Source: Cyanidioschyzon merolae (taxonomy: Eukaryota). From it: a stretch of 64,000 nt of DNA. This document shows positions 36,484 to 62,879 of this stretch, piece after piece. The stretch lies in assembly GCA_000091205.1 (NCBI GenBank), contig AP006502.2. One strand, given 5' to 3'. Each line of letters starts with the position of its first letter. The stretch's first letter is position 1. The notes under the pieces are model-generated. The model saw only the letters and a list, made by a program, of their open reading frames with translations. It ran no database searches and was not told the DNA's origin. The position numbers and the translations under genes were made by a program.

Positions 36484-39400
36484 ATATCGGTCGTTGAATG
36501 CGAAGAATTTAAAGTCTGGGATGCATTACCCGAGACCAGCGGACGCCGCTGGCAAGTGCTCGGTTTCTGCTTGCGCTGCGAGCGCTGCCCAGTGCCGAAT
36601 GTCGTGGCCAGCAGGGCGACTTTCGCGATGCGGCATCGACAGGCGCTCCGAGTGCTCAGTCATATCGAAGCAGGGGACCTCATGACCGGTCAGCTGTTGC
36701 CCAGGAAAACCGTTGTCGGTGAAAATGTACGAGGCGTCCTGCTTGCACGATTGCTGAACCGTACCATACCAGTGCATCGCTCCAGACGAGAAGCCGATGT
36801 GCGCTTGCTGGAGCTTTGCTTTTCCTTGGTGGCAAGTTTTCCGCGTTTCAGCATCATGCGTATACGGTGTATGGAATGGTTCACGTGAAGCTTTCACCTG
36901 CGGCAAACCCGATGGACGCTTCTGACGCACGAGACGTCTCCGGATGTGAATTGACGTGTTCGAGCTTCGGTGCAGCGCGTGTTTGCACACATCGTTGCCG
37001 ATGGCATCACTGCATAGCAAACCTGGTACCGTCGATTGCTTCGTCATCTGATATTCGGTCTGCGTACTGTGGATTATCTCGTGGATCCGGCCCTGTTGCA
37101 TTCCCTTTTTTGTTGTAGCAGTATCAGCGGGTACTCGTGCTTGTGGGGCGTGTTCTTCGTCCTTGACGCGTGCATTGGAATCGAACCCAATCGATTCCTT
37201 TATTGGTTGCTTGCTCTCGTCGACGGAGCAGGAGTGCAGGAATCGCGCGCTAGAGCACATCCAGCGCTACAGGCTACCACTGAACGACGCAACTTGTCAC
37301 CCGCGTCCTTTTTCAACGCACTGAGCAAGTTGGCGAATCCACGATCCTGGTCACCGTACAGCCAAAAGCCCCAGCGTCTCGTGCTCGATCTCGTGTACGC
37401 TTGGTGATGATCGATGACATGATCCGTATTGACGCACATTGGTGCTCAGAAGCGTAGCATCCATAGCTACAGTTCCCGCTCTTCTGAGCCAGGAAGGTTA
37501 GGGAACAGAACGCACGGGGTTCGCCTCATGAAGCGCTCAACATTGACCCAGGTATGTTTTCGTTCTCGTGCGATAGGTTTGATACTTTTTGCATTTACGC
37601 TTTAGATAATGCGATAGCGGACTTTCAGCACAGACAGTTCACGGTATCCGGGAAGGCGTTTGTGCGAATCTCGGATCCGACCATCATGCTAGCTAGCATC
37701 TTCAGAAGCGAGCATCACCTTTCGTACGAATGCTAGATCGAACGATTTCATAGTAACGAGGACAGCTGGTAACCGTTCGACCGGAGCGCCCGATTCATTG
37801 TTGCATACCGGTACGCGTCTAGGCGAGGGAAGCTGAACGAGCCTTCCCCGAAGTCAGAGGCTACTCGATCATGAACCGCATTCGGCGTCTTACTCTTTGG
37901 AGGATTCTCCACGCTGGTATGTTTTCGTAAAAACGCCTTGACAACGACATCAGATTGATGTTTCTGCTGCAGCCGTTTCTCCCGCTTGTCCATCCTCGTC
38001 CACTATTTGAAAGAATCGCTCTCTTCTTTTCGTAATGGTTTATTGCACCTTCCCGTTACTTTACAGGGTGACATATTCGTGGTCGCAGTACGCTATATTC
38101 ATGGTGTCCTCCGGGTTCAAGTGCATTTAGTGGACGATGGGAATGAATACCGCCTTTTCTATGCTTGTGAAGACGATGCCACAGGTACCATTTCGTCACC
38201 GTCGACGTCACGAGCACAACCGTGCAGAAAATCACGCCTTGCCGCTCGCTCCCGCACACTGTCAGAAGAGCAACAGAGCATTTCAGGACTGGTGAAGGTA
38301 GCGAACGACTCGTCATTTGATCTGAGCGCGTCACCATCGCGTTTGGTAGCGGAGCAGACGCCTTGGATTTGGATTGAGTCAATGAGAATAGGCTGCCGCT
38401 ATGAGCAGCTCAACGCCATTCGCAGCTGCATGCTCCTCGACCGCCCTTGGGTGGTTCAGAACGACGTTACCTAGAAGCACCGCAGAAGAACGTGCCAAAA
38501 GACAAGTCACGACGAGCTTCGTTGAGGGCTGGGCATGTTGCACCATCACGTCTGTTGGGCGGTCTGTAGGCGACCGACGCTCAACATCGCCCCGGGTGCT
38601 GATGCTGTCGTCATGCTCGATTGTCTCTTCTTGATGAGCAGCGTTTAACCGGTTTTCGAGTTCGCAAATTCAGATATGCGTTTTCTCGCGAATAAGGTCT
38701 CATCGAATGAGACGAATACGCGCCCCTTCTGAAGTAAGCGTTCGCGTTTCAGTACGGAATCGATGTGTGTATTGTTCAGCGGGCGACGGTCTCGCATCCA
38801 AGTGTGGTTCTCTGTTCGTCCGTCCACGCTTCCTCATGATCGGCCGCATGAACAGTACGGAAACTGAACATATCGTGGCTACTTTCGAAGTATACATTTG
38901 AGAACAACTGGATTGAAATGGATGAACGGGAAGGCAAATGTCTAGACTGAGTTTTATAGCATCTGGTCCAGGTGCACGACGTTCAGCACCAACGCTACGA
39001 GGCCGGCGATTTATCCACCTGCTGACTATTGATTAATCCAATGATGGGAGCAACGCTGTTTTCGGAAGCCAGTACCGACAAGATTTACGCTTCATGTGCC
39101 GGCACTCTAAGCTATAAGACGCAGTCCGTTCATTGGATAACTGCGAGAAAGAAACACAGGAACAAAAGATTCATACCGATATCGGTATTCCTGATTGTAC
39201 TGCTTTGCGTCTAGCGAAAGACGCAAACTCGGATTAGCCCCAAAATGTGATTCCTGCGAGATTCCAGATCTATATCCGCGTCGGTTTCAGAATAAATACG
39301 ACTGTTTGCGATGCATTTGCCAAGCGAGTGCTTACCGAGCCTTCGTCGATAAGCATGTTCGAGACTAGAAGCACAGCCATAAAGTCCTACAGATGCGCAA

Positions 39401-41475
39401 GTAGCTTTGGGGCGCTCCGTCGCTTTTTTCAGGGTCGCTCATTCGACTCTTTGCCGATGAAGCTCGTTACGGTACAGATATCAAGACGATTTACGACATC
39501 ATGATCCGACTCGTATGCGAGATACTCCAAGCTGCTCAGTTGCACACGTGGAGCATGTTTCGATCATGTATTCTTCAACTCTTAGAGTTTTCTCTTGCAA
39601 GGCAACTCATGGGCGCATAGATTCGCACCCCTCCATAGACGAGGAACAAGTACGCAATATCATCGCCTGATGTCTAGTTCAAGAGCATCTTACAAAAGCT
39701 CTCTGAGCTTTGCACGTGCTATAATCCATGCCATTCTCGAGATAGATCCTTTTCACTCTGTGATCATGGACAAAGTGGCATTCGACAGCAGCAGCTTTTT
39801 ACCTTTTATGCAAGACGCTCCCATGAAGCTCACTTCTGTTCTGTTCGCGAGGAGAAATGAGCTTGGGCTCGAACTTGAGCAACGCAGCGAGGGATTACTA
39901 CGAAGAATGTGTCACCGCTTTTTCTACGAAAGCGGTGTCTACGGGTTGAAATGTTGCGCACGGCTCTCTAGCCTGTATTTCCCATCCAGTACGTGTTCCA
40001 TTGTGGGCAACCTCGTGCTCTACGGAACCTATTATTGAATGGAGCATCTTGTGCTAGCGTGTGCAACAGCCAGAGTACTCGCTGAGGGCATCGCATCGAA
40101 GAAGCGCCTGACTGTAGCATACGGCACCGTGGGCAGACCTCATGACCCGTCGAGGGAATGTTCTGCGCGATGAAGAGGCAAGCACGCTGCGCAATGCGGC
40201 CTTCAGAGATCAAGGAATGTTGGATATACGGGAGTATCTGATCACAGTCAACTATCACTGGTGCGAAGGGCGCAAAATAGGCTATGTTTGGTGAGTGCGA
40301 AAACGGAAAGCAATGCGTGGATCGCAACTTCCGCTTCGGCATGGATTGCCTCGACTACAGCCGGAAGCTGCGACATCGGGACCTGTACGCTTCCGTTAAC
40401 ATCCGTAGACTTTCGGAAACGCATCGTGAGGAGAAGCAGAGCCAACCATATTTAAAACCGGAGATGCAAGAGATCGAACACAAAAAAGCCGCAGATAAAA
40501 CCCGCTAATACTGTTGTTGATGACATAGACAAGTGACCCAAAATTGAGCGAGCACACACGCTTCGTGGCTGCCCCATTCCAAATTATGCTGACATGGGTC
40601 TAGCTCTGCGTTCGCTCTCTGAGTCATATCCATAGCCCCCACGCACTGGAGTGTTTGACGACATGCGCCGTGTCCCGGAACGATAACAATCGCACCACGA
40701 ACTGCACAGGGAATTGCGACTTTCACGGTCGCAAGCGCGGAAACGTGCTTATCACCATATTACCAATACTTTGCAGCATTGGATAAGCAGCGCTTTGGTA
40801 TCGTAGATGCTCCTTCGCGCCGTATACAGCCTCGACATCGCGAACATGAGCAAGGCGTAATGCTTGCAAGAAGGACGACCTTCATCGTGGCACAGATATC
40901 GCAATCGCTGGTGACTCTGCCTATGTTGTGTACTTTCCATTATGGCATACGAAGGCATCTCGTGACGCTGGCGATTTGAAACGCATGTACCTGTGTTGAC
41001 GATGAATGCAGCGCCGATGAACAGGCGCAGCTGCATGACACCGAGACAACAGGTGCATCGTACACGACGGATGAGCACGAGACGGTACCAGCCTCGACGC
41101 GAGAACTCACGCGACCACGCACAAAAGCCCGATGCTGTTCTGATATTCACGCAAGCAGAGTTTCGAAATAGAATGCACTAGTGGATCATTCGTACAAAAG
41201 CGGCAAACACGTGCACTTTCTGCAGTGTACCCATCGTCGCACATGGTTGCAGAGGCCGCGCTTTCCCAGCGCGTGTCGTCTAGGCACGCTAGCTTCGTGC
41301 GGTATGCAAACGCCACCTAGCCAGGCGGGCATTGCAAGTGCTTTTATGTCCATGACAGGTGTCGACGAAAACGACGGCGGCGGCGAAGGCGGCGTTGTAG
41401 CCCAGCCCGAGTCATGAACTATCAGCGCTACGCTGCGACAGGGACAGTCGCACCAGAAACACAGTACCGACGATG

Positions 41476-44427
41476 CTATCCCTCATGGAAATGGTATCGT
41501 TCGGAATAGTCCAAGAGCCGCATCGCAACCAGGTAACGTTTGTTGCGAATCTGCTCGATCAAGAATCTGTAGAGGTCGCAGAAGCGATCCCGACCAAAAA
41601 CTGCCAGCACGCCCAGTTGAAGCATGATGTACGCGATGTGTAAGAGCACGAATATCCCCGACTGAGTGGATTCGTGACCAGGCAGCGCTTGAAACAGAAG
41701 AGGCAGCATCGCAATGCAAGCAGTAAAGATACATATTCGTAGAAGATTCGTAAACACGAGTACTGGGGCCGCACCTCGCCGAAAGATGAGTCTTTCGGGA
41801 AGAATACAATCGGCAAGAGCCGGATGTTCGCTCGGACTTGTTCCTCGTGGACGGAAGAGCGCTGGCCAGAGCACCCTTTGCGGCAAAAACCCGCGCAGCC
41901 ACGTCTGCACCCAGCGAGCGAAGGATACATCGCTGCTTGGAACGGTAGCCAACAGTGCGAAGTTGCGCTCCATGATGCACCCGAGCAAATACGGTAAGAG
42001 TACGAGCCATATGACCGAAGCACCCGCTATTGCGAGAAACTGCGTCATGTGTTCCGCCACAGACACCGAAAGAGCGAGCAGATCACCGCGCTGATAGGTC
42101 TGGTAGACAGTACGCGCAGCGGTCGCAATGATACCAATACACGTTAAGCTCAGAACATAGAGCATCAGGTCATTGATCTCGGCAAGTGTATCACCAGCCA
42201 GTACATGCAAGTAAGTAGAGACAGCTCGACCTATGACAAGCGGAATCGCCAGCACAAGTGCAATGCTGCAGCTCATAAATACGAACCAGAGCACAGCGAA
42301 GAGCACGATCCGCACTGGCAACAGTGATCCTCGCGAGGAGAAAGCAGGAACCTGCGGTTCCGGGACAGAGGTGACGTCAGCCGGAGTCGGGCTCTCGGTG
42401 CGCTGCGGTGTCGGGCGCATCACGAGATGCTGCAGGCCTAGCAAACGGCTGCTGTGGTGTGTCCAGAAAGCGACCACTTCTTGAGTGATCGATCGGAGTG
42501 GTGCCAGTCGAGTCAAACCCGACAGGAACAAACCGATAACTGTGGCGCACAGGGCGATATCCCAACCGGAACCGAGCCCTGAAACCAAACGCAAGGGAAA
42601 GACGTTCGGGCTGAACCATAGCACCATTTGCGTGGGTGCGTAGACCGTCAGCCCAATCACGGGAACGTAGAGTGCGGTGGAAAACCCCAGACGACGCAGA
42701 TGAAACCGCAGAGGTCGCGTGACGATCTCCCTCAAGGGATCAAAGTCGGGATCGTTCGGGTCTCGCAGAAAGCGCAGCAACCGGGGATGCAGAACCTCTC
42801 GCAGAATGCCAATAAGCACTGACAGGCCCGAGATGTACAGGATGCCGATGGTCCAGTGAATCAGCACATTTCTCGTGTCGGTTTCGAGGATCGATCGGAA
42901 GCGCACCTCCACGGTTCCAAGGCCCGACGGAAACGCAAACAAGTCCACAGCCATACCGAACACCAATGGAAGCATGATGAACTCAAGCATCATCACCAGA
43001 ATCGCTCTCGCTGTGACCTGGACGAAGGTAAGAATCCAGAGGGTGTTCCGAAAACGTTGCCAGCGCGCCGTGCCTCCTCTGACGTGGACGCGCTCCAGCA
43101 AGCGTATGCAACTCAAGATGAGACCCAGGAAGACCACGTATCCGATACAAATACTGTAAATGCTCGGAACGTTTCTCGATGAGGCAGATACCGCTGCGCC
43201 GGTGTCTAGAAGAGAACGCGGAACATCATCATCGGCGATCAGACGTACCCAGTGCACCAGAGGTAGCGTTAAGCACTTGAGGACAGGCCCCTTAAGCCGG
43301 AAAACCAGTGAGAGAACAAAGCGGCCCAGCAGCAGCGGGGACACAGCGAAAACATCGATGACCACCGCGTTACTAATCACGACGATGATCACATTCGTCA
43401 GCAGATTGACAAGCGGGCCTTTCAGTCCAAGCACTTCTGACAAAGTAAGGTCTTCGCCGCTGTCATGCTCAAGGAAAGAGAAAAGCCCAGGAGCGTTAGG
43501 TTCCGTCGTCCACTGCGTTTCTTGGGGGCTTGGCGCTGCCGACGGTGCTGTCCGCCCTTCTCCTGCAGGCGTGCTCGTCATCGAAGAAGGCCAGGAATCA
43601 TCGCTCTCTTCAGAGCCGCCTGCATCATCTTCGATACCTGCCATCGAGCCTAGACTACGCTCCTCTGTCAACGGGAACTGCGTGCCTGCCGCAGGCACTG
43701 CAATGCCCTGCCTCGCCCAGAGAGACCGCCGCCGGTGAAGAGGATGCGGCACTCGACGAGCGTAACCCGTTTGCCCCACACGACGGTTTGTCAGGGACTG
43801 GAGTGTTCGGCGCGACTCCTCGCGACCGTGCTCTTGGATGGCGTTCAGTCCGAGGCACGCGAGAAAAATCAGGATACACAAAACCAGACCTAACGACAGC
43901 CGAGTCACGATCGTCGATAAGTTTCCGACGTTTTTAATCTGTTCAAGATCTGTCCAACTCTTCGAGAACCCAGCGTACCAAATGATCCAGGTAGCGTACG
44001 GCACGACGAGCAGCCACGCCGCAGCGACCAGCGAGGCACGAGCCAGCCGAGCGTAGCCGGACGCAACAAGGTCGCTCAGACCCCAGAAAAGATCCGCCAA
44101 CCTCAGCGTGGTCGGTGCATCCGCTCGATAGACGGGCTCAAAGCGATACGCTGTTCCACAGAGTTCGCAGTGCGAGTACCCGGTCGTTCTTAGCCAAACG
44201 TGCAAGCAGTCTTCGTGGACGTACCGAACGGACCCGGCGCACTTGCAGGGACTTCGCAGTGGCCGATGGAGCTCACCAGGCTCTCGGCATATTCGACACT
44301 CCTCATCCGTCATCAGTGTATAACGAACACCCAGACTGCACTCTGAACACAGTCCGCTGGTGTTTCTGTGGAGCGTGCGTCCCCAAAGCAGAACGCTTTG
44401 TTCTGGTCGAATAACAGGAACGTTCAC
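41476..44427 (-). CDS. Doa10/TEB4(MARCH6)-type ER membrane E3 ubiquitin ligase with N-terminal RING-CH finger
   Basis: N-terminal RING-CH (C4HC3) at ~44160-44300: 'CRICREPGELHRPLRSPCKCAGSVRYVHEDCLHVWLRTTGYSHCELCGTAY'. It is followed by >10 predicted TM helices over 983 aa, the typical Doa10 architecture. A TD-like segment 'WTIGILYISGLSVLIGILREVLHPRLL' is also present. Confidence 0.8.
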   Translation of the reverse strand: MNVPVIRPEQSVLLWGRTLHRNTSGLCSECSLGVRYTLMTDEECRICREPGELHRPLRSPCKCAGSVRYVHEDCLHVWLRTTGYSHCELCGTAYRFEPVYRADAPTTLRLADLFWGLSDLVASGYARLARASLVAAAWLLVVPYATWIIWYAGFSKSWTDLEQIKNVGNLSTIVTRLSLGLVLCILIFLACLGLNAIQEHGREESRRTLQSLTNRRVGQTGYARRVPHPLHRRRSLWARQGIAVPAAGTQFPLTEERSLGSMAGIEDDAGGSEESDDSWPSSMTSTPAGEGRTAPSAAPSPQETQWTTEPNAPGLFSFLEHDSGEDLTLSEVLGLKGPLVNLLTNVIIVVISNAVVIDVFAVSPLLLGRFVLSLVFRLKGPVLKCLTLPLVHWVRLIADDDVPRSLLDTGAAVSASSRNVPSIYSICIGYVVFLGLILSCIRLLERVHVRGGTARWQRFRNTLWILTFVQVTARAILVMMLEFIMLPLVFGMAVDLFAFPSGLGTVEVRFRSILETDTRNVLIHWTIGILYISGLSVLIGILREVLHPRLLRFLRDPNDPDFDPLREIVTRPLRFHLRRLGFSTALYVPVIGLTVYAPTQMVLWFSPNVFPLRLVSGLGSGWDIALCATVIGLFLSGLTRLAPLRSITQEVVAFWTHHSSRLLGLQHLVMRPTPQRTESPTPADVTSVPEPQVPAFSSRGSLLPVRIVLFAVLWFVFMSCSIALVLAIPLVIGRAVSTYLHVLAGDTLAEINDLMLYVLSLTCIGIIATAARTVYQTYQRGDLLALSVSVAEHMTQFLAIAGASVIWLVLLPYLLGCIMERNFALLATVPSSDVSFARWVQTWLRGFLPQRVLWPALFRPRGTSPSEHPALADCILPERLIFRRGAAPVLVFTNLLRICIFTACIAMLPLLFQALPGHESTQSGIFVLLHIAYIMLQLGVLAVFGRDRFCDLYRFLIEQIRNKRYLVAMRLLDYSERYHFHEG

Positions 44428-47077
44428 GAGAGCGAGACAAGGCCGCTGCCGTGCCGCTATCTAGTGCACCGCGCAGCTTTGACCAGAGCTGTTGCCGCAA
44501 GTACCTTGTGACTGCAAAGCGCTTGACGCTGCAACACTTCGACGCTAACACCTAATAGGTGCCCGTGTATGCCACAGAGTTGATGCTTGGACGCTCACAG
44601 CGTAGAGACCGCGAACGGTGTCGTCTCTTCTCCCCTAGGAGCGCTCTCGCTGCAACACCGTCGTGCCCTTGAAGGCGCACACAGCACGTTATGCAGACCG
44701 AGGATGCCGGGTGGGTGCTCTTATCGCACGTTGTTCCTGGGGACAGAGGGATTCTGGGAGCGTGCTTGAAGAGATTGGTGGGAGCATCGACAGCCGCGCC
44801 TGGACGCTGGGCAAGTGCACCTGTGCTGCTAGCTGCGCTTTGACGACTTGCTTGCTGCGAACTGGACGAGTGCACCAGAGCAGGGCTCTTCTGTTCTTCG
44901 GGGGTTTTCAGTTGCTCCGACTTTGGCAAGTGAACTGGTGAGCAGTCCAGCAGAAGACTTTATTGCTCTGTCTGGCTTGCAGTTGTCCCTGTGTACCTGG
45001 ACGGTACTCGATTAGCGGCACGCAGCAGGGCACGCGTTCAGCACGAAAGACGGCCTGTGCGAACGAATGCTCTAGAAGCTTGCGCACTCGCCTGCCTCAC
45101 ACGCTCAGCTGTTATTTCACGGTGGACGTCAACGGGCATTGCGGCGACAGAGGAACGGAGTAGGGTCAATGCGCTGGCCTAGTGAGTTTGACGTGCTCTT
45201 CGAACGAGTGCCCTTCTTCTCGGGTGCTTTGTTCCACACACATACGCACCACATGGGATCTGTATGCGGACGGACTCGAATGTAATCGATCTCAGGATGT
45301 ATCGATAGCATCCCATTCTGCCGCTATTGCAACCAAGTTTGGCTGGTATCCATCGCATGTCGTCGCTGTGCAGCGTTCACAAGAAAAGTGGCTGGCCTCG
45401 ATCAACGCTACTCCCAAGTTGCCACCGCGGGCGTGAGCTCCCACGCACACCGCTCTCACAGGTTGCAGCAGTAGGCACTGAAGGTTCGAAGGCACCAAAT
45501 ATCTGGAGGTTCAGGTCCGTGAACAGGCTTTATCACTCTGGTATGTAAAGGGTTGGTTCGAATTCATTGCGCAAACATCGGGTACGCTGAAATGGATTAG
45601 ACGGAACTGTATCTGTGATTGTCTCGGGTATACGCGCGCACATATCAAAGCGTTCCATGATGTCAGTGTCAGATCAGAGTGGAGCACTGAACTGCACGCA
45701 CGCTTCGTTATTTTCGATTCCTTTCCGACCTCATGTTTTCGGTGCACAGCCATAACAATCAAAGTCCAGGAATAAGGACGAATTGATTGATGAGCAGTGT
45801 TGAGATTCCCGGCCGACTGTTTAGACTGGATTCGTCGACGCTGCGCCATTGGCATTCGCGACGTAATGGTTACCAATATGGTGCGCTACCTACCCGAAGC
45901 TGGGCACGTAGAATTAGCGAAATTATTATCCACTTCATACGCTCAAGCATCCACTCTTCTGCTTTCCCTTACGTTGAGCACGCTCAAATCACGCAGTCTT
46001 CTTGAATTACTGGATCTTTTTGTTTCAAGGCATCTGCACATAAATATTCGCTTCGATGCATTGATGAGGAGAACAAAGAATCTGGATGTCATCCTTTGAT
46101 GGCTCGTCCATAAAGCCATGCCGAAAACTCACTCCGCTTGACACATCAAATGATCCATGTCGTTCGAAAGAGAAAGTCTCCTCTCGTTGTGGCCATCGAC
46201 GAAATGCGATTACACGACGGTCTGAGACCCCTGCATGGAATACGGGCTCAGGGGCCGCGTCTCTTCTGCTTGCATGGAAAAGATTTTTGGACTCGGACTT
46301 TACTCATCGGACCGATTCCTTCCTTTGTAGATTTCGTCATTGCTTTGGAGGAAATTAGTGTGGATGCATGGAGATTTTTCGACTTGTGTCCCAGTTTGAA
46401 TTCCGCTTCTGGTACTTGTTTCATCATTTATAGCTTTGCGTTCCCCAAATTCTCCATCGAATGGAACAGCATGCACTTGCGTGAGCAGCGGACAGCGTAC
46501 TCGCCGAGGGCGTCGCTCAAAACACACGCCCCGGATCGTAGAATACGGGATGGGGCACATCAACGGAAGACGGCTTTGATGGGATCCCGCAGTACCCGTC
46601 AATTGCATGTGCCAAGCGATGCAGCAATGTGTTTCATACCACTGGGCTGCACGAGGAGCCTACGCGGTCGACATCCGGTAACTCCCGACAGCAGCCAAGT
46701 ATCACCGCTGGAAAGCGCGCATCGAGGCTGTGTACTAGACACGTGAAGCATGGCAAGCGATGCATTCATCGTAATTTCGGTGGCGGCATGAAATGCGTCA
46801 TCAGCAATGGAAAACCGAAACATCCGATCTTGAACGATACCTTCAACGTCGTCCGACTGCGGACAACGAATCTCGTGCGAACGGTGAGATCGGCGTACGT
46901 CTAGCCAGAGATTAGAGAGAAGAAAAGCAAGCAGTCGCACCAAAAGGCCACAAATGCTTGTGTTCGTGATACTGGGAAGAGACCCAGATTTTACTGTATG
47001 TGTCTGTGTGTGTGTGTGCCCAGTTAAGACGGCCTGGTCCAATTTATTCTGGCATGGATATGGGCAGATCAACGCTT

Positions 47078-47806
47078 TCAAAGTTCAACGAGGCGCAGAT
47101 CAGTCTCGTGTGAAGATGATGGCATGCTGGGCAGGCTCCGCATGCCGGGCGATCGCGCCGATCCTCGGCGGCTTTTCCGCGAGCGCGCGTCGCGTATCCG
47201 ACTCGAACTCGGGACGTGACTCGTTGCCATATCCGTTGATGCTCCAGGGTGTTGGATATCTGTTGGCAAGACGGCGTCGTAATGCTGATTTTCGTAGTAA
47301 GCAAGCCGAAGCACCCGCTGGACGGGGCCGTCTGAGTGACGGATACGGTACGACGGCGCGTCCAGAAGATAAATGATCATCTCCGACTCGAGCATTGCGC
47401 TCAGGGCGTGAACCTCGAGATGGCCAGCCCAGACCCCGTCGACACGCATCTTTTTCACGTACCCGTCAAAGTCGACAACTGCGTTGCAGCCGGTTCCTAG
47501 TGCCTCCGCCTCCAGGTAGGGTGCGTAGACCTTGCGGTTTTCACACAGGTAGTCGCACACCCGTTGTCGTAGTTTCATATGGTCGCAAATGTCTCGAGGG
47601 GCATGATTCCGACCTAGAATCTGAAACTGAACAGCACATGCGCGAAAGAAACAGTTTCCATCTCCAGGCACAGGCAGCAGTCGCATTCCAAGCGGTGCCA
47701 ACAAGCGGTTGAACTGCCTAGCCGCAGGTCCCGCACGGTTCGCCCTACGACTCTCCTTCGACGGAAGGTCCCTTCGTCTACGACCCATATCAAGTTTAGG
47801 AAGCAC
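47078..47806 (-). CDS. OTU-domain cysteine protease (deubiquitinase-like)
   Basis: Cys box 'LLPVPGDGNCFFRACAVQ', His box 'YENQHYDAV' near the C-terminus, and Asp upstream of the Cys ('GMRLLPVPGDGNC'). Confidence 0.75.
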   Translation of the reverse strand: MLPKLDMGRRRRDLPSKESRRANRAGPAARQFNRLLAPLGMRLLPVPGDGNCFFRACAVQFQILGRNHAPRDICDHMKLRQRVCDYLCENRKVYAPYLEAEALGTGCNAVVDFDGYVKKMRVDGVWAGHLEVHALSAMLESEMIIYLLDAPSYRIRHSDGPVQRVLRLAYYENQHYDAVLPTDIQHPGASTDMATSHVPSSSRIRDARSRKSRRGSARSPGMRSLPSMPSSSHETDLRLVEL

Positions 47807-50165: not shown

Positions 50166-50674
50166 CAATGAGCATTCGCCTTCAATGCATAGACCGCTAA
50201 TGTACAAGGTGCTGATTGATGCAGGCCCGTGTTCACAGTCCTAAACGTACGAGCAGCTACGTTTCCTGGTACACAAGTGCGCTTCCATGGGATCCGATGC
50301 AGACGTCTACTCCCTACACCGATCGCCCGGCAATGCTGAATACCGCGTCTGACGGAGCACTCTGTATCGATTTGCACGGATTCCGAGCCTTCGTTTGCAA
50401 CAGCTGCCGTGCTATGCGCTCCATATATAGAGGGGCGCTCGAAACTCCAAACCATTTGCGTCGCCAAGCATTTGTAGTTTCATGCGACAACGCGTGCATT
50501 CCAGTATATCGCACAAATGCAGTACATCAACTGACTCGATACCGCTTCCACATCCCCAAAACCAGATGCTGGTACCTGCTTCGTTCAAGCTCGATGTGTA
50601 CCTTACCAATGAACAGCCTCGATGGTACGTTACCCCATGTCACAGGGCATGCGACGCAGGTGATCACGAACTTA

Positions 50675-51241
50675 TCAGAACGTATGGTTGCTTTCGGGCA
50701 AGAACCTGATGGAAAACAGCGATCGCGACACATATTCGCTTGCGTCTGCCGGTGGTGCCTGATGTGCATCGACTCGGCAGGGGAAACCACTTGCTGTCAG
50801 TACTCCTTGAACGATGCCCGCTATGAGCGCATTGCAGTTCAAGCCTTCCAGTTCCGTTGGCACGCTGATGAAACGAGCGAACAGCATCGTATTGTCCACA
50901 ATAATATACTCGTTCTCCTTGTCTTTCACTCGCTCCAGCGAGTCAGCAAACTTGCCGAAAAGGAAGCGCCATACTGTCGTGGTGGTGAAGCGCAGCGCAC
51001 CAAGAACGTCGATTTCCCTTCGGGTGAACTTTTCTCGAAGCCACACCAGTTCCAGTACTCGTCGACCGATTTGTTGGCCAAGGTCCAGCAGTCGCTCCTC
51101 TAGCTCAGCGATGGAGTCGACTCTGTTCTGAAAATACGATATCGTCTCTGCAAAGAGCAGCGCGAACACGGAAAAGTGCGCCGACTGGTTTCGCCGAGCT
51201 TGCAGGAAGGGTACCGGCAGTGCCATTGCTGTAGTGCTCAT
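50675..51241 (-). CDS. TRAPPC5: TRAPP complex subunit 5 (TRAPPC5/Trs31)
   Basis: 'HFSVFALLFAETISYFQNRVDSIAELEERLLDLGQQIGRRVLEL...LGALRF...VWRFLFGKFADSLE...YIIVDN...LNCNALIAGIVQGVLTASGFPCRVDAH' aligns with TRAPPC5 'SAFALLFSELVQYCQSRV.SVAELQSRL..LG.QVG.RVLD...LGAL.F...VWKALFGKEADKLE...YIIE....LNCASFTAGIVEAVLTHSGFPAKVTAH'. Confidence 0.8.
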   Translation of the reverse strand: MSTTAMALPVPFLQARRNQSAHFSVFALLFAETISYFQNRVDSIAELEERLLDLGQQIGRRVLELVWLREKFTRREIDVLGALRFTTTTVWRFLFGKFADSLERVKDKENEYIIVDNTMLFARFISVPTELEGLNCNALIAGIVQGVLTASGFPCRVDAHQAPPADASEYVSRSLFSIRFLPESNHTF

Positions 51242-54948: not shown

Positions 54949-56390
54949 GACAGTGGGACCGACGAGGAACTAGGTGGGCCTTTGTAACAGCAGCTGCAGC
55001 AGCCGCAGCAGCAGCACAACGGGTCGCATCCGAAAAACCTCTGTACAGCGGCTCGCATTTCAGCGTCTGAGAAAACGGGTGTTCTCGCCGAGGCTAGCCG
55101 CCTGCGGATCTCGAATTCGATGTTGCTTCGGCTGCTGACAAGCGCCAGCCTGCTGCCTCATTTCATCATGAGTTTTACGTTTCTAAAAATGGATAGCTTG
55201 CATTAGATTTTGCGTTGCTGTATAGAGGCCGTTCTACACAAGGATATCATGGAAGTTCTTTCCAATCGAGGGTAATTTGCGTTCGAACCTAATCATGTAG
55301 CTGACTCCGAGTACCCGCAGACCTGCATTGGAAGAAGCTGTGCAGGATCGAAAGCTGTAAAAGATACCTATGGACACGTCGACCTAGCTCTCTGCGCTCA
55401 GCGTGCGTCGAAGTAGATGCATACAGTCGGTCGCACGAAGCTGCTTCTTTTTCCAAGTGGGTAACGTGCACTAAACCACTGCGAGATTCACATGCAACTC
55501 TGAACTTGTCGCTCTGTTGCTGCTCTTCATTTTTCTCTTCCCAACTTTTTTAAATGGTCAACTTCGGCGTTTGAGGAGAAGCAGTAAGGACTTTCGGACT
55601 CATATGCAGTTTTCAAATGCTCTGTCGTCTTTTCAGAGTGATTTCAATGACGCCTTGTCGCTGGAATTCGTCACGACCTCTGAATCAAGATCATTCGCGA
55701 CACGCTGGAACAAGGGTACCTAAAATAACCCAAATCCTTATCGGATGCATATGCACAAGCCTTTCATCTTGTTGTTTCCCGAACAACAGCATGTTCAAAT
55801 CACAAAGTCTTCATGTGTGCGATTTTGCTTTTCCAACGCAAGTTATGGGCGAAGCAATTTTCGCAGAGGTAAAGCCTTTTTCGACCGACCACCACCTATT
55901 GACGTCAGCTTCCTCCTGCACACCTCAAGTCTGAGAGACTGCCCCATAAACCTGCATCGCGTCAGCTCCTCGGTTCTCTTCTTCAGCACTATATATCGTC
56001 GGATACTGAAGGTGACGTTGGAGTCTCGTTTCACGAACTCCTCGCATATATTGCCGCTTGTTGAATTCACCCATGCAAGGATTGCCAGAACACGAGTACT
56101 CAGTACCATTGACTGCTCTGTCAGCTCTCCGTACTTTTCTATCGCGCGAAGCGCTCCGCTGCCTTCTCTCTATCTCGATGTTCTGAAGTGTACACCGCAG
56201 CTCATCCCTTGGATTTCTTATTTCTTCAAATGGCGCGCTTCTTTATGCCGTTAGATGAGGAGCTAACCGGAGCGAGAAGGGCTTGCAGACGAAGGACGCA
56301 ATGTGGCCAGGTACCAATGTGTGCTGAACGCTGCAGCGACTCGCCCCGTTGAGCATTAAAAACGTCTCATAATAGAAAAAAACACTTTCT

Positions 56391-56950
56391 ATGGGGCTCA
56401 ACCACGGATTATATCGAGGAATGAAAAGCAGCTCTATTCTCCGATCGAATCAGCAAACATTCGAACGCAAGGGGAATGGTGAAATACCAAGCCGTACAAC
56501 CGGACGACGTCGTCAGACGTCAGGGGAAATTTCTTCAACGATTCGGTACAGTGTGTGCTGTTCTACGAGCCTTCTCTCTGAGCGAAACTGCGGCCGCCAA
56601 ATGAATCCACTGCAGCTCAAACAGTTGATGATGTCCTCGCTCTCATCAAGTTCGATCATACATACAGCTGGCTCCATCTCCGCGACTACCCATGTACGCC
56701 CCGACCATTTCGGCCAAAGAAAGTCGCATCGTCTGAAAAAGACAGAGCTACGTCTCTGTGCTTCGTGCCGATCGGGACGTTCCGGGAACGCTGTCGTTGC
56801 GAATTCGATACAAGACGGCTGTGCATGAACCAGGACTTTATCGCGACTGCATGCCAGTGCATTCAGGATCACACGAATTAGCTGGCGAGAAAAACAGATA
56901 GAGGTGATGGGTATCATCGTCGCTTTCCCCTTCCCTAAAGTAATCAACGG
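56391..56950 (-). mobile_element. Copy of the dispersed repeat family (homologue of the 12606-13134 ORF)
   Basis: ORF 56513-56947(-) '...SCIEFATTAFPERPDRHEAQRRSSVFF...CSCSGFIWRPQFRSERRLVEQHTLYRIVEEISPDV*' matches 12736-13134(+) '...SFTEIATTTFLEHRDRHEVQGRRVVF...CSRWSGFIMRPRIRSQTWLIQQLRPLYQIIEGFFPDV'. The opposite-strand ORFs 56391-56828(+) and 12606-12851(+) are also alike. AT-richer context. Confidence 0.4.
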
Positions 56951-57509
56951 GTCGTTTTTCTACCAGTGAACGCAAGCACACTTTGAGTATATCTGGTTTC
57001 GGTGCGGATCGCATGTACTTGCTTCTTTATTTCAGTGTTCCTCGTCCATCTGAATACTGTGGTGAACCGTACCTGAACGAGGAATGCAGTCCACCTTGCA
57101 CCGTTCAGTAAAGAATATATATCTAACATTCTATTCGTCTACGATCTATACAGCACATTGCTTCTACATCTCGACCTTCTGCTATACACATCAACATAGC
57201 ATACGAATACGCATAGCAGGAATGGAGCCTCATGGAGTCGCGCTGGTGAGCAGAGAGCGTCTCGAGCGTCCGCATGGGATGCGTTTCTGGATGGACAGAA
57301 TTCGAACGACCAAGAACGGCAGTGCAGTACAGTGCAGTTTGGGAATCCTCAGCTAGCCGACTTGGGGCTTGTGAACGTGTGTGAGCGGATGCGCATACGC
57401 ACCGCTCCATACATAAAAACGAACCTTCTTTGCCATATTCATGCTTCGTGGTCCGTATACTCTGCACTGCAGTGCACGGGTACCGAACAATATGCAACTC
57501 TAGTTCTGC

Positions 57510-60500
57510 TTGCACGCTGCCCTCATGGCTGATCGTGGTACCTCCGTCTCCTCGTTCGAGTCGGAGACATTTGGAGACAGCACGCTAAGAGGCAGCAGCG
57601 AACTCAATAATGGACAGGAACGAGGCACGCGCACACGTCGAAGCAGTGCACGTCACCGCAGTCGTTTGTCGAGTTTCTTTGCTCCACCACAGATTCGAAG
57701 CGATCCAAAGGAAGCCAAGTTCCTCCTTGAGACGCTATCCTCGAAGCAGGTAACTTGGCAAATTCTCAACATATGCAGTGCAATCGTGCTCTCCGTCACC
57801 TACACGCTAGCAATGAGTCTGTTTGCACGCCGTTTCGAAGCGGCACTCCCGGCACTCAACCTCGTTGACCGCGTCGTCGTGTACTGCTTTTGCGTGCTCC
57901 AGCTTACTTTCACGATCGTCTACTTTTTGCGTCTCTATCGGTATGGATGGATCCGTTGCACCTTCGAAATGCGCAGCTGCTTCCTACAAGGTCTATTTAT
58001 ATTCTTTACGATGAATATTATAGGCAATATTGCACGAACGATATCGGAAGCGAGCGGCACCACGATCGCCATTCTCTATGTCTCCGACCTGGTCTGGCAA
58101 TGGTTCTGGATATTTGGTTTTTATGGACACGCCATGGCTATTCTACGACTCTATCGTGATATGAAGGATCGCCACACGTTTCTAGAACGAAACCGCGTGG
58201 TATTTGGTCTCTGTTTGATCATCGCCGCCGTGGAGACAGCCATTTGCGGCTGGTCTCGAACGACGTTAGGACTCACCTGGCCGGGCATGTTGGTTCAGTT
58301 CGCTATGCGTGGACACCAACAACAAGCGGCCTACTCGCTTACGTTCGCGCTCGTGGTTACCATGCGCATTTTCCTCGATGGCTGGATTGCCATGGAGCTC
58401 TACCGCGCCTTCCGAGTGCTCCAGCAGCTGCCGTATACCTGTTGTCATCACAAACAAATGGGTGCTCGTTTCTACCGTGTCTTTACTGCGATATCCTATA
58501 TATTCCTGATTGCAAACGATACCATCGCAGTGGGCCTGGTACCATTACCAAGCGCGAACGCGTCCCTCGATGGCGTACCGTTGCGGTTGCTGGGTATTGC
58601 ACGATTCAATGGTGGTGCCTTCGCGATGCTCTTTACATGGTCGGTGCTCCTGCTCTATGTGCATTTACCTCCGACAGTGCTGGGTGTTTGGCTGCCCTGG
58701 ATCGTTGCGCTGGCTCCGGACCCAGCTGCATATCAAGAAAAGCGAGCCCCACAAAGGAGCGTTTCCTCCGAGTGGGAGTTGTCCGCGCACAGCGCCAGCC
58801 AGGCGGCACCGTGGCCAGCGGACGCACTGGATGCAGAGCGAGAGCTGCGCAAAGCAAACCTCTACTACCAGACTGAGCAGGAAGCACTGCGAAATGGAGA
58901 CAGCTGGCTCTCGCGCTCACTTGTCCTCGAGACGCATGTTTTGATCTTCAACATGGCGTACCTGTCCTATCGACCGTGGCATGACCCGCATATGTATGCA
59001 GAGATGTTCAATCATTATGGTGTGGGCGAAATGGACCCCCTGCAAGCACGAGTCGTGCGGCATATCTCCAGCGCCGTTACAGATGTACATGTGCTCGTCA
59101 TTGACTTGGCGGATAGGATTGTGGTGAGCTTTCGCGGTACCAAAAGCACCAGAAATTTACGCACAGATATGAATGTCCGACGGGTTCCTCTCGAGGAGCA
59201 CCTGCATGCACGTGAATGTCCGCAAATACAGGATACGTGGCGCTTGAGCGCCTGCAGCAAACACGGTCAACGCGGGTCGTTGCGGGAGTCACCGGCGAAA
59301 GCGACTGTCGACGGTACAACTCGAATGCCTCGTACGACGAATGCTGTAAGCACCACTGCCTTGGCTGCCGGGCGTAGCGGCACCTCGGCTGCGACTTGTT
59401 CGCAAATACCGCCCGCAACACATAGCAAGCGCGAAATAGATTCGACTAGGAAGCACCAGGCATCAGTGGAGGCCTTTGCCAAGGACGATTCGGATATAGA
59501 GCGCGGTCTTGATGATGCCCTGTCACAGGAACTCGGTGTGGATCCTGGAGGCCGTTTTGCACATCGTCGATGGTGGCAGTATATGCTGAGCGTACGCGGG
59601 ATCCGTTCCCTGCGCTTTGGTGATTTTCGCGCTCAGGCTGGTGACGATTTTTCGTATCTCATAGGGCGACGAGTGCCTACAATGGTGCACGATGGATTTT
59701 TGCACGCCTATTTATCCGTGCGTGAAGAGTTAATGGAGACGCTGAAACCGCTTGTTGCAAAGCCCTCGAGCACTGCACCAACTGCAGTGGATGCGGCTTG
59801 CGCGCCCTTGAGCAGCACCTGCGGCGATGCCACTTGTGGTGTCGCTACCAGCCTGGATAGGCGCGTGCAACCATCGAACCGCTTTCCCGAGGTGTCCAGT
59901 GCGGATATTCATGGCGGTTGTGAACACGGGCAGCAGCAACAGCAGCTGAGCTTAGCGGGTACAGAGACCGCAGCGCGGTGTCGAAGCGAAACTGCTACAG
60001 CAGCAGCAGCAGCAGCAGCAGCAGATGCGAGCGAAGCGCAACCGTGTAGTGCGATGAACTCCTTGGATAGTGCATCTTGCAACCACAAACCGGTGATCTT
60101 TTGAGGTCACTCTCTCGGCGGGGCTCTGGCAAGCATCGCTGCCCTCGATATGACGTGTTTTGAGAATTCACAGTCGTTGCGTCTGTCATCGGATCTGGTG
60201 ATGTGTGTGACTTTTGGGTCGCCTCGAGTCGGGAATCGCGCTTTCGCTGCAGCGTTCCAGCGACATGTGCCGTTTTCATTCCGATGGGCAGCGGTCGGCG
60301 ATATCGGGACGAAACTGCCTTTCTGGGGTTATGAGCATGTTCCGGTCAAGATGATGCTGGATCCGTTGTTGGGGAGCATTCTCATGGATCCCTCGATCAT
60401 CGAGGAGTCCATGGTAGCGTTCCGGAACGCTTTGGATGCGCACCTGCGACCCGCATATATCCAGGGGTTTGAGCGCTGGTGTCGGCGCTACCACCCCCGC

Positions 60501-60578
60501 TGGAATGTGCAGTTCTGGGATTTCCACGACGTGTTTGATGACCCCGCCCTAGGTGCTGCTTTGGAAAGCATCACATGA
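57510..60578 (+). CDS. Transmembrane class-3 (fungal-type/DAGL-like) lipase with an in-frame TGA at 60102-60104 splitting it into ORFs 57510-60104 and 60105/60150-60578
   Basis: N-terminal multi-TM region. Lipase_3 motifs in order: 'VLVIDLADRIVVSFRGT' (~59110-59145), 'VHDGFLHAYL' (~59686-59715), then '...NHKPVIF*GHSLGGALASIAAL' (TGA, then GHSLGG nucleophile elbow 60105-60122), 'VGDIGTKLP' (catalytic Asp region) and 'YEHVP' (catalytic His). Both ORFs share one reading frame. Large low-complexity inserts (polyA/polyQ, (CAG)9 at ~59998-60024) lie between the motifs. Confidence 0.7.
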
Positions 60579-61572
60579 TGAATGCATGACCTATGCAAGC
60601 GCATGGCTGCTGGAGCGTGCCACTTGTCCTCAAGGTCCGCTACGCTTCGCAAACGGGCGCAAGTGCGCTACCCACAGAAGCACACCAGCATCACGAAGGT
60701 GAGCAACGACATGTCGGGTACGCGAGGCACGCTTGAGCATCAGCCGAATGGTGTCTTGGATCACGCCCGGTGCGAGGTCGCTCAAATATGTGGCTCTCGC
60801 CACACGCTCCACCTCGACGACCTGCAAAAAAGTACACCTCTGCGAATCATGCTCCAGAGGTATGCATCAAAGGTTCCGCCCGATGTTCGTCGAATCGTCA
60901 TGCAGACTGGTCGGTGGATGAATGCAGCACCTTCATCGCCAAAGTGAAACGCGTTGACGTCCGAGTGGAGAGCGTGAACCGTCCCCGGTCGACTGGACGC
61001 GGAATCCGTCCGAATTCCCGGTAGCGAAATAGACGCGATCCGCCACTGGCTACCCTGAAAAGCGTCTCTGGCGGGTACTTCTGCGAAATCCAGAATGAGG
61101 CATGCTGCGCTCTGTCCACTAGTCTGCAGGTCTGGCTCTGACACTGCCGCATCGATGCTGGAGTTTAAGCTGCGCCCCAGTGATCGACGCATGCTGCGGT
61201 TGCTGAGATTGGTCTCTCGATAGTCAGTCGTAGTGCCTCAACCAGCGCCAATATTCCTGCTGAATTCATGCTTGTCGCGAGTACGCCTTTGAGCGCGTTT
61301 GCCGACAGAGGCCGGCGCCGTGGTGCTCGCAGCACAGCAAGCGATCATGTGCTCTTTGAGCAGCTACAGACAAGCACCACTTTTGCAGCGCATGGTACAC
61401 GCGATGGACGCGAGCGTAGCTTCCAACGATCCGCGATCTAGTCCTGAGGTATTCCGGCGGCGATAATCACCACCCAGTATCATGACTGAAACGCTGTAAA
61501 CGATGCATCATGCGATATCCACAGGGCCAGGGCACGGCGATGATTCAGCGGCAATCTCGCTCAAATGCTAGC

Positions 61573-62241
61573 TTACTGAGGATTCTCCAGGGTTTCGTTT
61601 TTGTTGGATGATCGTCGCCGATGATGTCGTCTTTTCTTTCTCACGGAAGACGCGTTCTTGGCCGCTGGGTGCACGTCATCCTCGTGCTCTGGCTCTAACG
61701 ACGACGACGACGACGAAACGGATGCAGACCTCCCGTGGTCGCGCTTTGCAGAGGCGCCATCCTGCGCTCCACCAGGTGCCCTCTTCTTCGAGCGCATGCG
61801 TTCGGGTTCAAGTCTCGCATCAGAGGTATCCAATGCCAGCATCAAACGCCGCTCGTCGCGTGTGCAGAGCTCCTCGCCAAGCCCTAGTTTCAAGAGCAAG
61901 AGTCGAAACCGACTTTCTGGGCGACGTAAGATACGTGACATCGACCGTGACTGCGAACCGAATACACCATCTGCAGTTGCCGCGTCTGCAAGCTCTTCCA
62001 GATGCTCCCAGGCAACGACCTGGCGGTATCCCGGAGTCTTGGATGCCTGGTCCACGATCTTCGCAACTTGCCTCACAAAAGGACTGCCTTCAGCCTGCAG
62101 TTCATGCTCGCCTTTCCGCCAGTAAGACATAGCGACTGATGCGACGCCAAATACTGAGTTGGGTGAGTCGACGCGTGCTGCCAGTTTGCTTTTGCTGTTC
62201 GAGATCGGCAAGGAATCGCCTGGCAACACGGTCCATGGCAT
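61573..62241 (-). CDS. Hypothetical protein (Ser/Arg/Lys-rich C-terminus); may continue from ORF 62102-62365(-) across a frame break
   Basis: 222-aa ORF with a poly-Ser and basic tail. The neighbouring same-strand ORF 62102-62365 overlaps it in another frame, so a frameshift, a short intron or a mis-call is possible. (ACG)6 at 61698-61716. Confidence 0.25.
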   Translation of the reverse strand: MPWTVLPGDSLPISNSKSKLAARVDSPNSVFGVASVAMSYWRKGEHELQAEGSPFVRQVAKIVDQASKTPGYRQVVAWEHLEELADAATADGVFGSQSRSMSRILRRPESRFRLLLLKLGLGEELCTRDERRLMLALDTSDARLEPERMRSKKRAPGGAQDGASAKRDHGRSASVSSSSSSLEPEHEDDVHPAAKNASSVRKKRRHHRRRSSNKNETLENPQ

Positions 62242-62879
62242 CGTCCGATTCTATTTCCCAGTCACAAGACTCGTTCTCTATGTCTTGCTCTAAAGATGTA
62301 AGCGACTTGTCGAGTACCTCAAGTGCCTTGGCTGCCAGCCCTGCACACTGCATCCCAAAACGCACTTGCTCCTCGGGTGTCAGTTTCGCTTGGACGAGTG
62401 CTCGCAGCTCTGCAGGTGATGCAAACGTGCTCAGATTACCGGCTTCCTTGGCTTTGCATCACCTTTTATGCAGCTTTCCTCTCTCTCGATGCCCGGGTTC
62501 AGCTTTGGCTGCCATGAGAGCTGCTGCGCGTGCCGTTGCAACAGAGATGCGAGCGTGGTGGTTAGGAGGAGGTCAGAAAACTGAAACAATCCATATGATG
62601 GTCTCTCCAAAGCGTCAAAGTCTTCAAGGCAGTAACCGGACTTGTCGCTTCCGCTGTCAATCAGCAGAAAAGCGCATAGCGTACGCCCCGTGCCGCACAG
62701 AGGAAGCAGCACGTTGGTTTCGAAGATCGATAGAAGACGTTTTTGATAAACAATTCGCCTCTGGAAACACCACCAAACGCCTTGCAAAAGAGAAACGCTG
62801 GAAAGCCAGTGTACAAGAGTGGCGTTTCTCACACCGTCCGTCGTAGACCGAATGTCTACCCATCGATGTACAGACGCCT

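Follow-up and report, generated by a model that had tools for sequence, protein, structure and literature searches.

The question raised by this locus is whether a gene interrupted by one in-frame stop codon is still a working gene. In the 64,000-nucleotide stretch of Cyanidioschyzon merolae 10D chromosome 20 analysed here (contig AP006502.2; hereafter the window, in whose positions all coordinates are given), a gene of 1,017 codons for a class-3 (Lipase_3) lipase-like protein is cut by a TGA three residues ahead of its nucleophile Ser. Such a codon could be an error in the reference, could be decoded as an amino acid, or could simply end translation. We find that in wild C. merolae-like populations the TGA segregates as a common Cys-to-stop allele and is not private to 10D, and we put at about 0.75 the probability that the 10D locus is a young loss-of-function allele, a unitary pseudogene in the making. 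The feature is of an ordinary kind, a new instance of a nonsense polymorphism. It matters because C. merolae 10D serves widely as a minimal model alga and lipid-engineering chassis, whose reference would hold a natural allele, null or at best severely hypomorphic, of a membrane lipase specific to Cyanidiales and kept intact in wild relatives. This would be relevant to lipid phenotypes, and would provide a ready natural comparison of knockout with wild type.

On the + strand the site reads AAC CAC AAA CCG GTG ATC TTT TGA GGT CAC TCT CTC GGC GGG, and single-frame translation of 57510-60581 gives ...NHKPVIF-stop-GHSLGGALASIAALDM.... Two open reading frames (ORFs), 57510-60104 and 60150-60578, lie in this common frame, whose first ATG is at 57525; 157 sense codons follow the TGA before a TGA TGA doublet closes the frame, compared with about 0 to 30 codons to the next stop for most of the window's remaining long ORFs with a terminal TGA. 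An earlier inspection of the letters and ORFs of the window (the sequence-only reading) had described an in-frame TGA directly before GHSLGG with both ORFs in one frame, and the sequence and its single-frame translation bear this out. It had also held that the stop parts one portion of the lipase from the catalytic triad. This stands as well: FRGT and VHDGF lie 5' of the stop, whereas GHSLGG, the GxSxG nucleophile elbow, which is both present and aligned, lies 3' of it together with the presumed Asp (AAVGDI) and His (DAHL) regions, these last two placed by motif alone. A catalytically complete, uninterrupted frame is found in relatives and not in 10D, where the TGA precedes all three triad residues.

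Both halves belong to one lipase gene. A single Pfam Lipase_3 (PF01764) match bridges the stop and extends over residues 846-934 of the joined product (E=5e-22; 78.8 bits, where the cut-off is 22). We also searched solved structures, with a query in which Cys was placed at the TGA site and most of the low-complexity insert was omitted. Matches in the PDB included PAD4 and the Rhizomucor miehei and T. lanuginosus lipases, and the TGA codon fell opposite the Thr of V(F/V)TGHSLGGA in PAD4 (8zf0_C) and the R. miehei lipase, three residues before the nucleophile. At the protein level the joined sequence retrieved only three clusters: 70 near-identical environmental sequences, with a representative 98% identical; P0002 (963 aa), grouped with the intact Cyanidiococcus yangmingshanensis protein KAK4529157.1 (963 aa); and P0003/P0050 (894 and 964 aa), which represent a third lineage. 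The orthologues P0002 and P0003 share 57-58% identity with the window protein and run collinear with it from the membrane region to the C-terminus ...ALESIT, and both read KPVIF-C-GHSLG, with the Cys encoded by TGC and TGT, respectively. Comparison of orthologues therefore places Cys at the site in both outgroups and no intron, and the claim that the stop occupies an aligned lipase residue holds. The ratio of nonsynonymous to synonymous substitution rates (dN/dS) between the two outgroups is 0.12 on the 5' side of the site and 0.06 on the 3' side, indicating strong long-term purifying selection where the gene is intact.

Two ways around the stop were considered and rejected. An intron over the stop would excise aligned conserved residues, and the sole GT...AG pair near the stop covers 13 nt. 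Nor would the enzyme be rescued by reinitiation at ATG 60150 or by one fragment complementing the other, because the GHSLGG segment falls between the TGA and this next ATG; the segment GHSLGGALASIAALD is absent from both products. Neither half of the lipase (eight Met starts upstream and two downstream were tried) was found as a protein in a collection that holds other 10D proteins, and no mention of a class-3 lipase in C. merolae was found in the literature searched.

A degenerate pattern at the site identified ten metagenome contigs, and protein look-ups added five more. TGA is present in 12 sequences, namely the window and L001, L004, L005, L007, L008, L011, L012, L013, L014, L015 and L016, which come from several metagenomes; these 11 contigs are 97-99% identical to 10D and differ from it at many other sites. 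Four contigs (L006, L009, L010 and L017) carry TGC, Cys is also present in the proteins P0015 and P0016 (the latter encoded on L017), and the outgroup contigs L002 and L003 have TGC and TGT. As both outgroups carry Cys, TGA is the derived state. The two alleles co-occur in one metagenome, Ga0078972. Over the 157 downstream codons, L015 (TGA) and L010 (TGC) differ by 0 nonsynonymous and 2 synonymous changes, so the TGA/TGC difference must be very young on that background. All four combinations of alleles at codons 860 and 870 exist among the sequences, which implies recombination, recurrent mutation or mosaic contigs.

TGA is also an ordinary stop elsewhere in the window. It ends 6 of the 14 gene ends that we tallied (those of a BRK-domain gene, ORF15381, the HAD gene, the OTU gene, the homeodomain gene and the lipase itself), and the TRAPP gene is likewise TGA-ended. 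The BRK-domain gene terminates in TGA-GG, the same context as the premature stop of the lipase. The sequence-only reading had named four genes as ending in TGA: its SerB-like (HAD), OTU and TRAPP examples stood, while its bS16 gene was not located.

In the account that we favour, the locus is one gene for a Cyanidiales membrane-anchored class-3 lipase-like protein, and the 10D allele arose by a derived nonsense change of its Cys codon from TGC to TGA. We infer that ribosomes most likely terminate at 60104, releasing a protein of 859 residues that comprises the membrane domain together with the FRGT/VHDGF part; ribosome profiling data exist for 10D (PMC11808204). This truncated product would lack lipase activity because the Ser-Asp-His triad is missing, and the mRNA may also be destabilised. 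Some TGA haplotypes would later have gained further disabling mutations, and the gene would be a dispensable, polymorphic loss-of-function locus.

Second disabling lesions were found in 6 of the 12 TGA sequences and 0 of the 4 TGC sequences, although these numbers are small. Three contigs share an uncompensated GA duplication, at which the translation of P0001 switches frame, two have a TAG and one has lost GG (Table 1). The frameshift haplotypes are thus a subset of the TGA haplotypes, which fits a TGA that came first, followed by decay, and they suggest that the truncated membrane protein is itself dispensable. One further protein, P0011 (696 aa), leaves the family after ...GDATC and continues with an unrelated 26-residue tail, which is either another lesion or the product of a chimeric contig. 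We base the pseudogene reading on the discrete lesions and the lack of a recoding signal, and not on substitution rates. A recent nonsense mutation had been among the options listed by the sequence-only reading, and it is this option that the alleles support, in a refined form: the mutation is a common segregating allele, and 10D itself has no second lesion.

Several observations weigh against a pseudogene. The haplotypes of 10D, L014 and L015 are full-length TGA haplotypes 1.1-1.4% apart, and have no other lesion in 1,017 codons. Within the clade, dN/dS reaches 0.6-0.7 both 5' and 3' of the stop, 5-10 times the long-term values (0.12 and 0.06). Neighbour genes from the same contigs, when pooled, nevertheless give a similar value (~0.6), so relaxed constraint is demonstrated neither by dN/dS nor by the corresponding ratio for polymorphisms, pN/pS. 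(The neighbour baseline held a spurious + strand ORF, 50219-51103, where the real gene is TRAPP on the minus strand; dropping this ORF and ORF46150 leaves 0.60.) Indels are rare in the non-coding flanks too, and an open frame, including the freedom of L014 and L015 from frameshifts, therefore carries little information. The TGA is frequent (12 of 16 sequences) and occurs on several flanking backgrounds, which fits drift or clonal spread, and would also fit a tolerated or useful allele. Finally, metagenome contigs can be strain mosaics, and the rearranged joins described below may be chimeric.

Features shared with known unitary pseudogenes and segregating nonsense polymorphisms are a single derived disabling substitution in a conserved single-copy gene, an intact allele in conspecifics and outgroups, and extra independent lesions on the null background. 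Unlike a typical unitary pseudogene, the lipase has a TGA that is frequent in several environmental samples and on several flanking haplotypes, just the one lesion is carried by 10D and by two full-length haplotypes from the wild, and relaxed constraint lacks statistical support.

Near-cognate decoding of UGA as Trp, Cys or Arg occurs at a basal level in eukaryotic readthrough. Termination at the lipase stop could accordingly be leaky, yielding a little enzyme of full length, part of which would have the ancestral Cys, so that the allele would be a hypomorph and not a null, with weak selection on the 3' part. Among the TGA sequences the downstream frame is broken in three, but its 157 codons are intact, with all catalytic motifs kept, in 10D, L014, L015, L016, L007 and L011; the coding sequence (CDS) is less diverged than the flanks (0.7-1.9% versus 1.5-4.4%); and homologues tolerate T, C, V, A, S, R and G at the site. 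Against this, at 1-2% divergence chance alone would be expected to leave the frame open, dN/dS is not below that of the neighbour genes, and frameshift, TAG and deletion alleles sit on TGA backgrounds. The stop context, UUU-UGA-GGU, is not a leaky one, and the same TGA-GG ends the BRK-domain gene. No 3' stimulatory structure was found in the 120 nt after the stop, which fold less stably than shuffled sequences (z=+1.16). With neither a leaky context nor a 3' structure, the programmed readthrough entertained by the sequence-only reading found no support, and we regard leaky termination as an unlikely account of the locus.

A selenocysteine (Sec) codon is a further alternative. Lobanov et al. 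(2007) reported that C. merolae has SBP2, EFsec, SecS, SPS2 and tRNA-Sec and no selenoprotein, and proposed a lineage-specific selenoprotein or an unusual selenocysteine insertion sequence (SECIS) element (PMC2375036). Subsequent work found PSTK missing and neither a SECIS nor a selenoprotein genome-wide (PMC6627142), and a 2020 survey again found no C. merolae selenoprotein (PMC7539508). The lipase could be the lineage-specific selenoprotein that these surveys missed, its TGA read by the retained machinery. A TGA opposite Cys in orthologues and conspecifics (L002, L003, L006, L009, L010 and L017) is how a Sec/Cys pair classically presents; the TGA is also a frequent allele, and apart from it three full-length haplotypes carry no lesion. 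Furthermore, the Cys homologues look, from their accession numbers, like later deposits, and would therefore have been invisible to the 2007 Sec/Cys screen. If true, this would explain why C. merolae keeps tRNA-Sec, EFsec, SecS, SPS2 and SBP2 though three surveys found no selenoprotein.

The evidence at the locus points the other way. No SECIS was found in the remainder of the ORF or in ~1 kb of 3' flank: Rfam gave none at the gathering score in the whole window and none at E<=10 in 59800-62300 or 60570-61580. Our own pattern scan (ATGA quartet, helix II, unpaired AA, 3' GA and helix I) gave no strict match in 60105-61700, although a highly unusual SECIS might escape it. Relaxed matching returned just three ATGA sites, where the background rate is about 1 per kb per strand, and the sole 3'-UTR (untranslated region) candidate, at 61540, has a weak, GU-rich helix of 8 bp that is missing from the minimum-energy fold. 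The site itself is the end of the strand preceding the nucleophile elbow, and in 147 homologues with the elbow motif it is Thr in 112 (76%), Cys in 27 and V, A, S, R or G in 8. This mixture of Thr and Cys implies an interchangeable structural position and not a redox Cys. Because TGC gave rise to the TGA within the species, Sec decoding would have required a SECIS to be in place already; a new TGA without one is a plain stop. In addition, half of the TGA sequences have second disabling lesions.

The lipase thus resembles eukaryotic selenoprotein genes in its in-frame UGA opposite Cys and in a host reported to hold most of the Sec machinery, and is unlike them in its Thr-majority, non-redox site, the reported absence of PSTK, the lack of a detected SECIS, and a derived, polymorphic TGA with second lesions on TGA alleles. 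We consider a Sec-encoding lipase very improbable. It would also demand an atypical SECIS and a natural Sec/Cys polymorphism at a non-redox site, a combination to which we give equally little credence. Non-standard decoding, another option of the sequence-only reading, accordingly gained no support: no SECIS was found, the site is a structural Thr/Cys position, and TGA terminates the lipase itself. The case also illustrates that, where a genome is reported to keep most of the Sec machinery and has no known selenoprotein, an in-frame TGA opposite Cys can be mistaken for the mark of a selenoprotein gene.

An error in the 10D reference, with TGC as the true codon, is also poorly placed. TGA and TGC are one base apart and close relatives have TGC; but the identical TGA occurs in 11 independently assembled contigs whose haplotypes differ from 10D at many sites, and we reject the sequencing or assembly error that had been offered as a first possibility, leaving it a negligible chance. 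Genome-wide reassignment of TGA to a sense codon, for which nothing beyond the single lipase codon speaks and which had rightly been thought unlikely, is refuted within the window and is the least credible reading of all, since TGA closes the genes tallied above, mostly with a further stop a few codons on, ends TRAPP just past its Pfam domain and the lipase at a C-terminus common to both outgroups, and bridges no other pair of long ORFs in the window inside a conserved domain.

Table 1. Features of the lipase gene and lesions in its alleles (window positions).
Feature	Position	Strand	Evidence or remark
5' lipase CDS, 859 codons: multi-pass membrane region, FRGT and VHDGF, long low-complexity insert	57525..60101	+	collinear with orthologues P0002 and P0003
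Uncompensated GA duplication (frameshift)	58044..58047, after 58046	+	L001, L005, L012 (three metagenomes), sequence-level verification; absent from 10D
(CAG)n microsatellite in CDS, poly-Ala in frame	59990..60022	+	length varies by -9 to +6 nt among contigs
Premature TGA; Cys (TGC/TGT) in orthologues, Thr in most class-3 lipases	60102..60104	+	contig alleles and homologue alignment
Residues across the TGA site if decoded: PVIF[U/C/W/R]GHSLGGALASIAALDMTCFENSQSLR			
3' lipase CDS remainder, 157 codons	60105..60575	+	GHSLGG elbow, presumed Asp and His
GHSLGG nucleophile elbow	60105-60122	+	Ser codon 60111-60113
TTG (Leu) to TAG, codon 885	60177..60179	+	L004, L008 (two metagenomes); intact in 10D
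Presumed catalytic Asp in AAVGDI	60300-60302	+	motif inference only
GG deletion (frameshift)	60306..60307	+	L013; intact in 10D
Presumed catalytic His in DAHL	60441-60443	+	motif inference only
Natural terminator, TGA TGA doublet	60576..60581	+	C-terminus ...ALESIT common to both outgroups

Like other class-3 lipases (R. miehei lipase, plant PAD4/EDS1 and PLA1), the joined protein has FRGT, VHDGF and GHSLGGA in canonical order, and the Thr that precedes GHSLGG in the R. miehei structures 5tgl, 1tgl and 4tgl aligns with the TGA codon. Unlike them, the window gene has ~1,017 codons, an N-terminal multi-pass membrane region of ~400 residues and a ~130-residue insert between VHDGF and the elbow, and in 10D its frame is broken before the triad. 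A search of the full library with P0002 found thousands of relatives of the catalytic domain, whereas the membrane region was covered by one other good match, P0083 (30% identity); full-length relatives were found only among Cyanidiales-like sequences, apart from P0083. Residues 311-557 of P0083 have a sub-threshold Pfam match to WLS-like_TM (Wntless-like; 22 bits against a cut-off of 28.3), a hint as to the nature of the lipase membrane domain. In the sn-1 diacylglycerol lipases (DAGL alpha/beta), transmembrane helices at the N-terminus precede a Lipase_3 domain that contains a regulatory insert, and the combination of a membrane anchor with a class-3 lipase domain holding a long insert may make them a loose analogue; the N-terminal region of the window lipase is far larger than four helices.

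The orthologue is not uniformly represented among Cyanidiococcus assemblies. The CCYA assembly has the intact 963-aa KAK4529157.1, and assembly F1559 has two proteins, KAF6005539.1, of 529 aa and aberrant at its C-terminus, and KAF6005540.1, of 259 aa and internally deleted. Either this split reflects a fault of assembly or annotation, or the copy in a second lineage is damaged.

The (CAG)n tract is the precise point at which two groups of contigs cease to be collinear with 10D. In the first (group B: L007, L009 and L011), window position 55014 is joined to 59997, a 5-kb gap relative to 10D that takes the promoter region and the 5' five-sixths of the lipase gene. In the second (group C: L004, L008 and L013, and P0015 by its sequence), the 3' 600 nt of the lipase are joined to the locus of the condensin Cnd1 subunit, and a private ATGCAG duplication is present. 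These joins may be microsatellite-mediated deletions and rearrangements, or equally chimeric assemblies at (CAG)n; if real, they would add to the case for a dispensable gene. How the joins arose has no bearing on the point lesions located 3' of the repeat. On another contig, L017, positions 1-79 duplicate window 60079-60157.

Other substitutions were seen 3' of the stop. Codon 867 (60123-60125), the Ala after GHSLGG, lies within the strongly conserved part of the nucleophile-elbow motif and is changed to Val (GTT) in L014 and L016, only on TGA haplotypes. In 10D, V943M (60351) and H1007P (60543) are derived changes private to the strain at sites where the outgroups agree; S969A (60429), where they also agree, is common to L007 and L011, and S949L (60369), where the outgroups differ (T/S), is common to L007. 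Measured against L003, 10D has ~4.5 more nonsynonymous differences than the TGC contigs do.

The surrounding window consists of long intron-free ORFs on both strands at ~55% GC. Its genes include an alpha-glucan water dikinase (GWD), a homeodomain protein, OTU, TRAPP and a mitochondrial carrier. Exact 10D protein matches were obtained for GWD (XP_005539500.1), the carrier (XP_005539494.1), OTU (XP_005539502.1; CMT549C) and CYME_CMT538C (XP_005539491.1); the DOP1-like, homeodomain and 61576-62241 products had no record in the protein collection. GWD is also BAM83464.1 and OTU BAM83466.1, leaving one annotated protein between them. As the interval 36526-47078 has three sizeable ORFs, 36526-37260 (minus strand), a RINGv ORF at 41476-44313 (minus strand) and 46150-46746 (+ strand), some of these must be unannotated or not genes.

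A dispersed repeat of ~1.2 kb was found in two copies, 55931-57147 and 12478-13745, which are ~69% identical, inverted and 43 kb apart. The first lies in the 5' flank of the lipase and ends ~380 nt before its ATG. An interspersed repetitive element has been reported for C. merolae (PMC1955436), of which this repeat may be a copy. Downstream of the lipase, the + strand ORFs 61608-62132 and 62139-62846 share a frame with a TAG between them, and overlap the minus-strand ORF 61573-62241. No Pfam match was obtained for any of the three, and across 61573-62846 the ratio of nonsynonymous to synonymous polymorphism (pN/pS) exceeds 1 on both strands.

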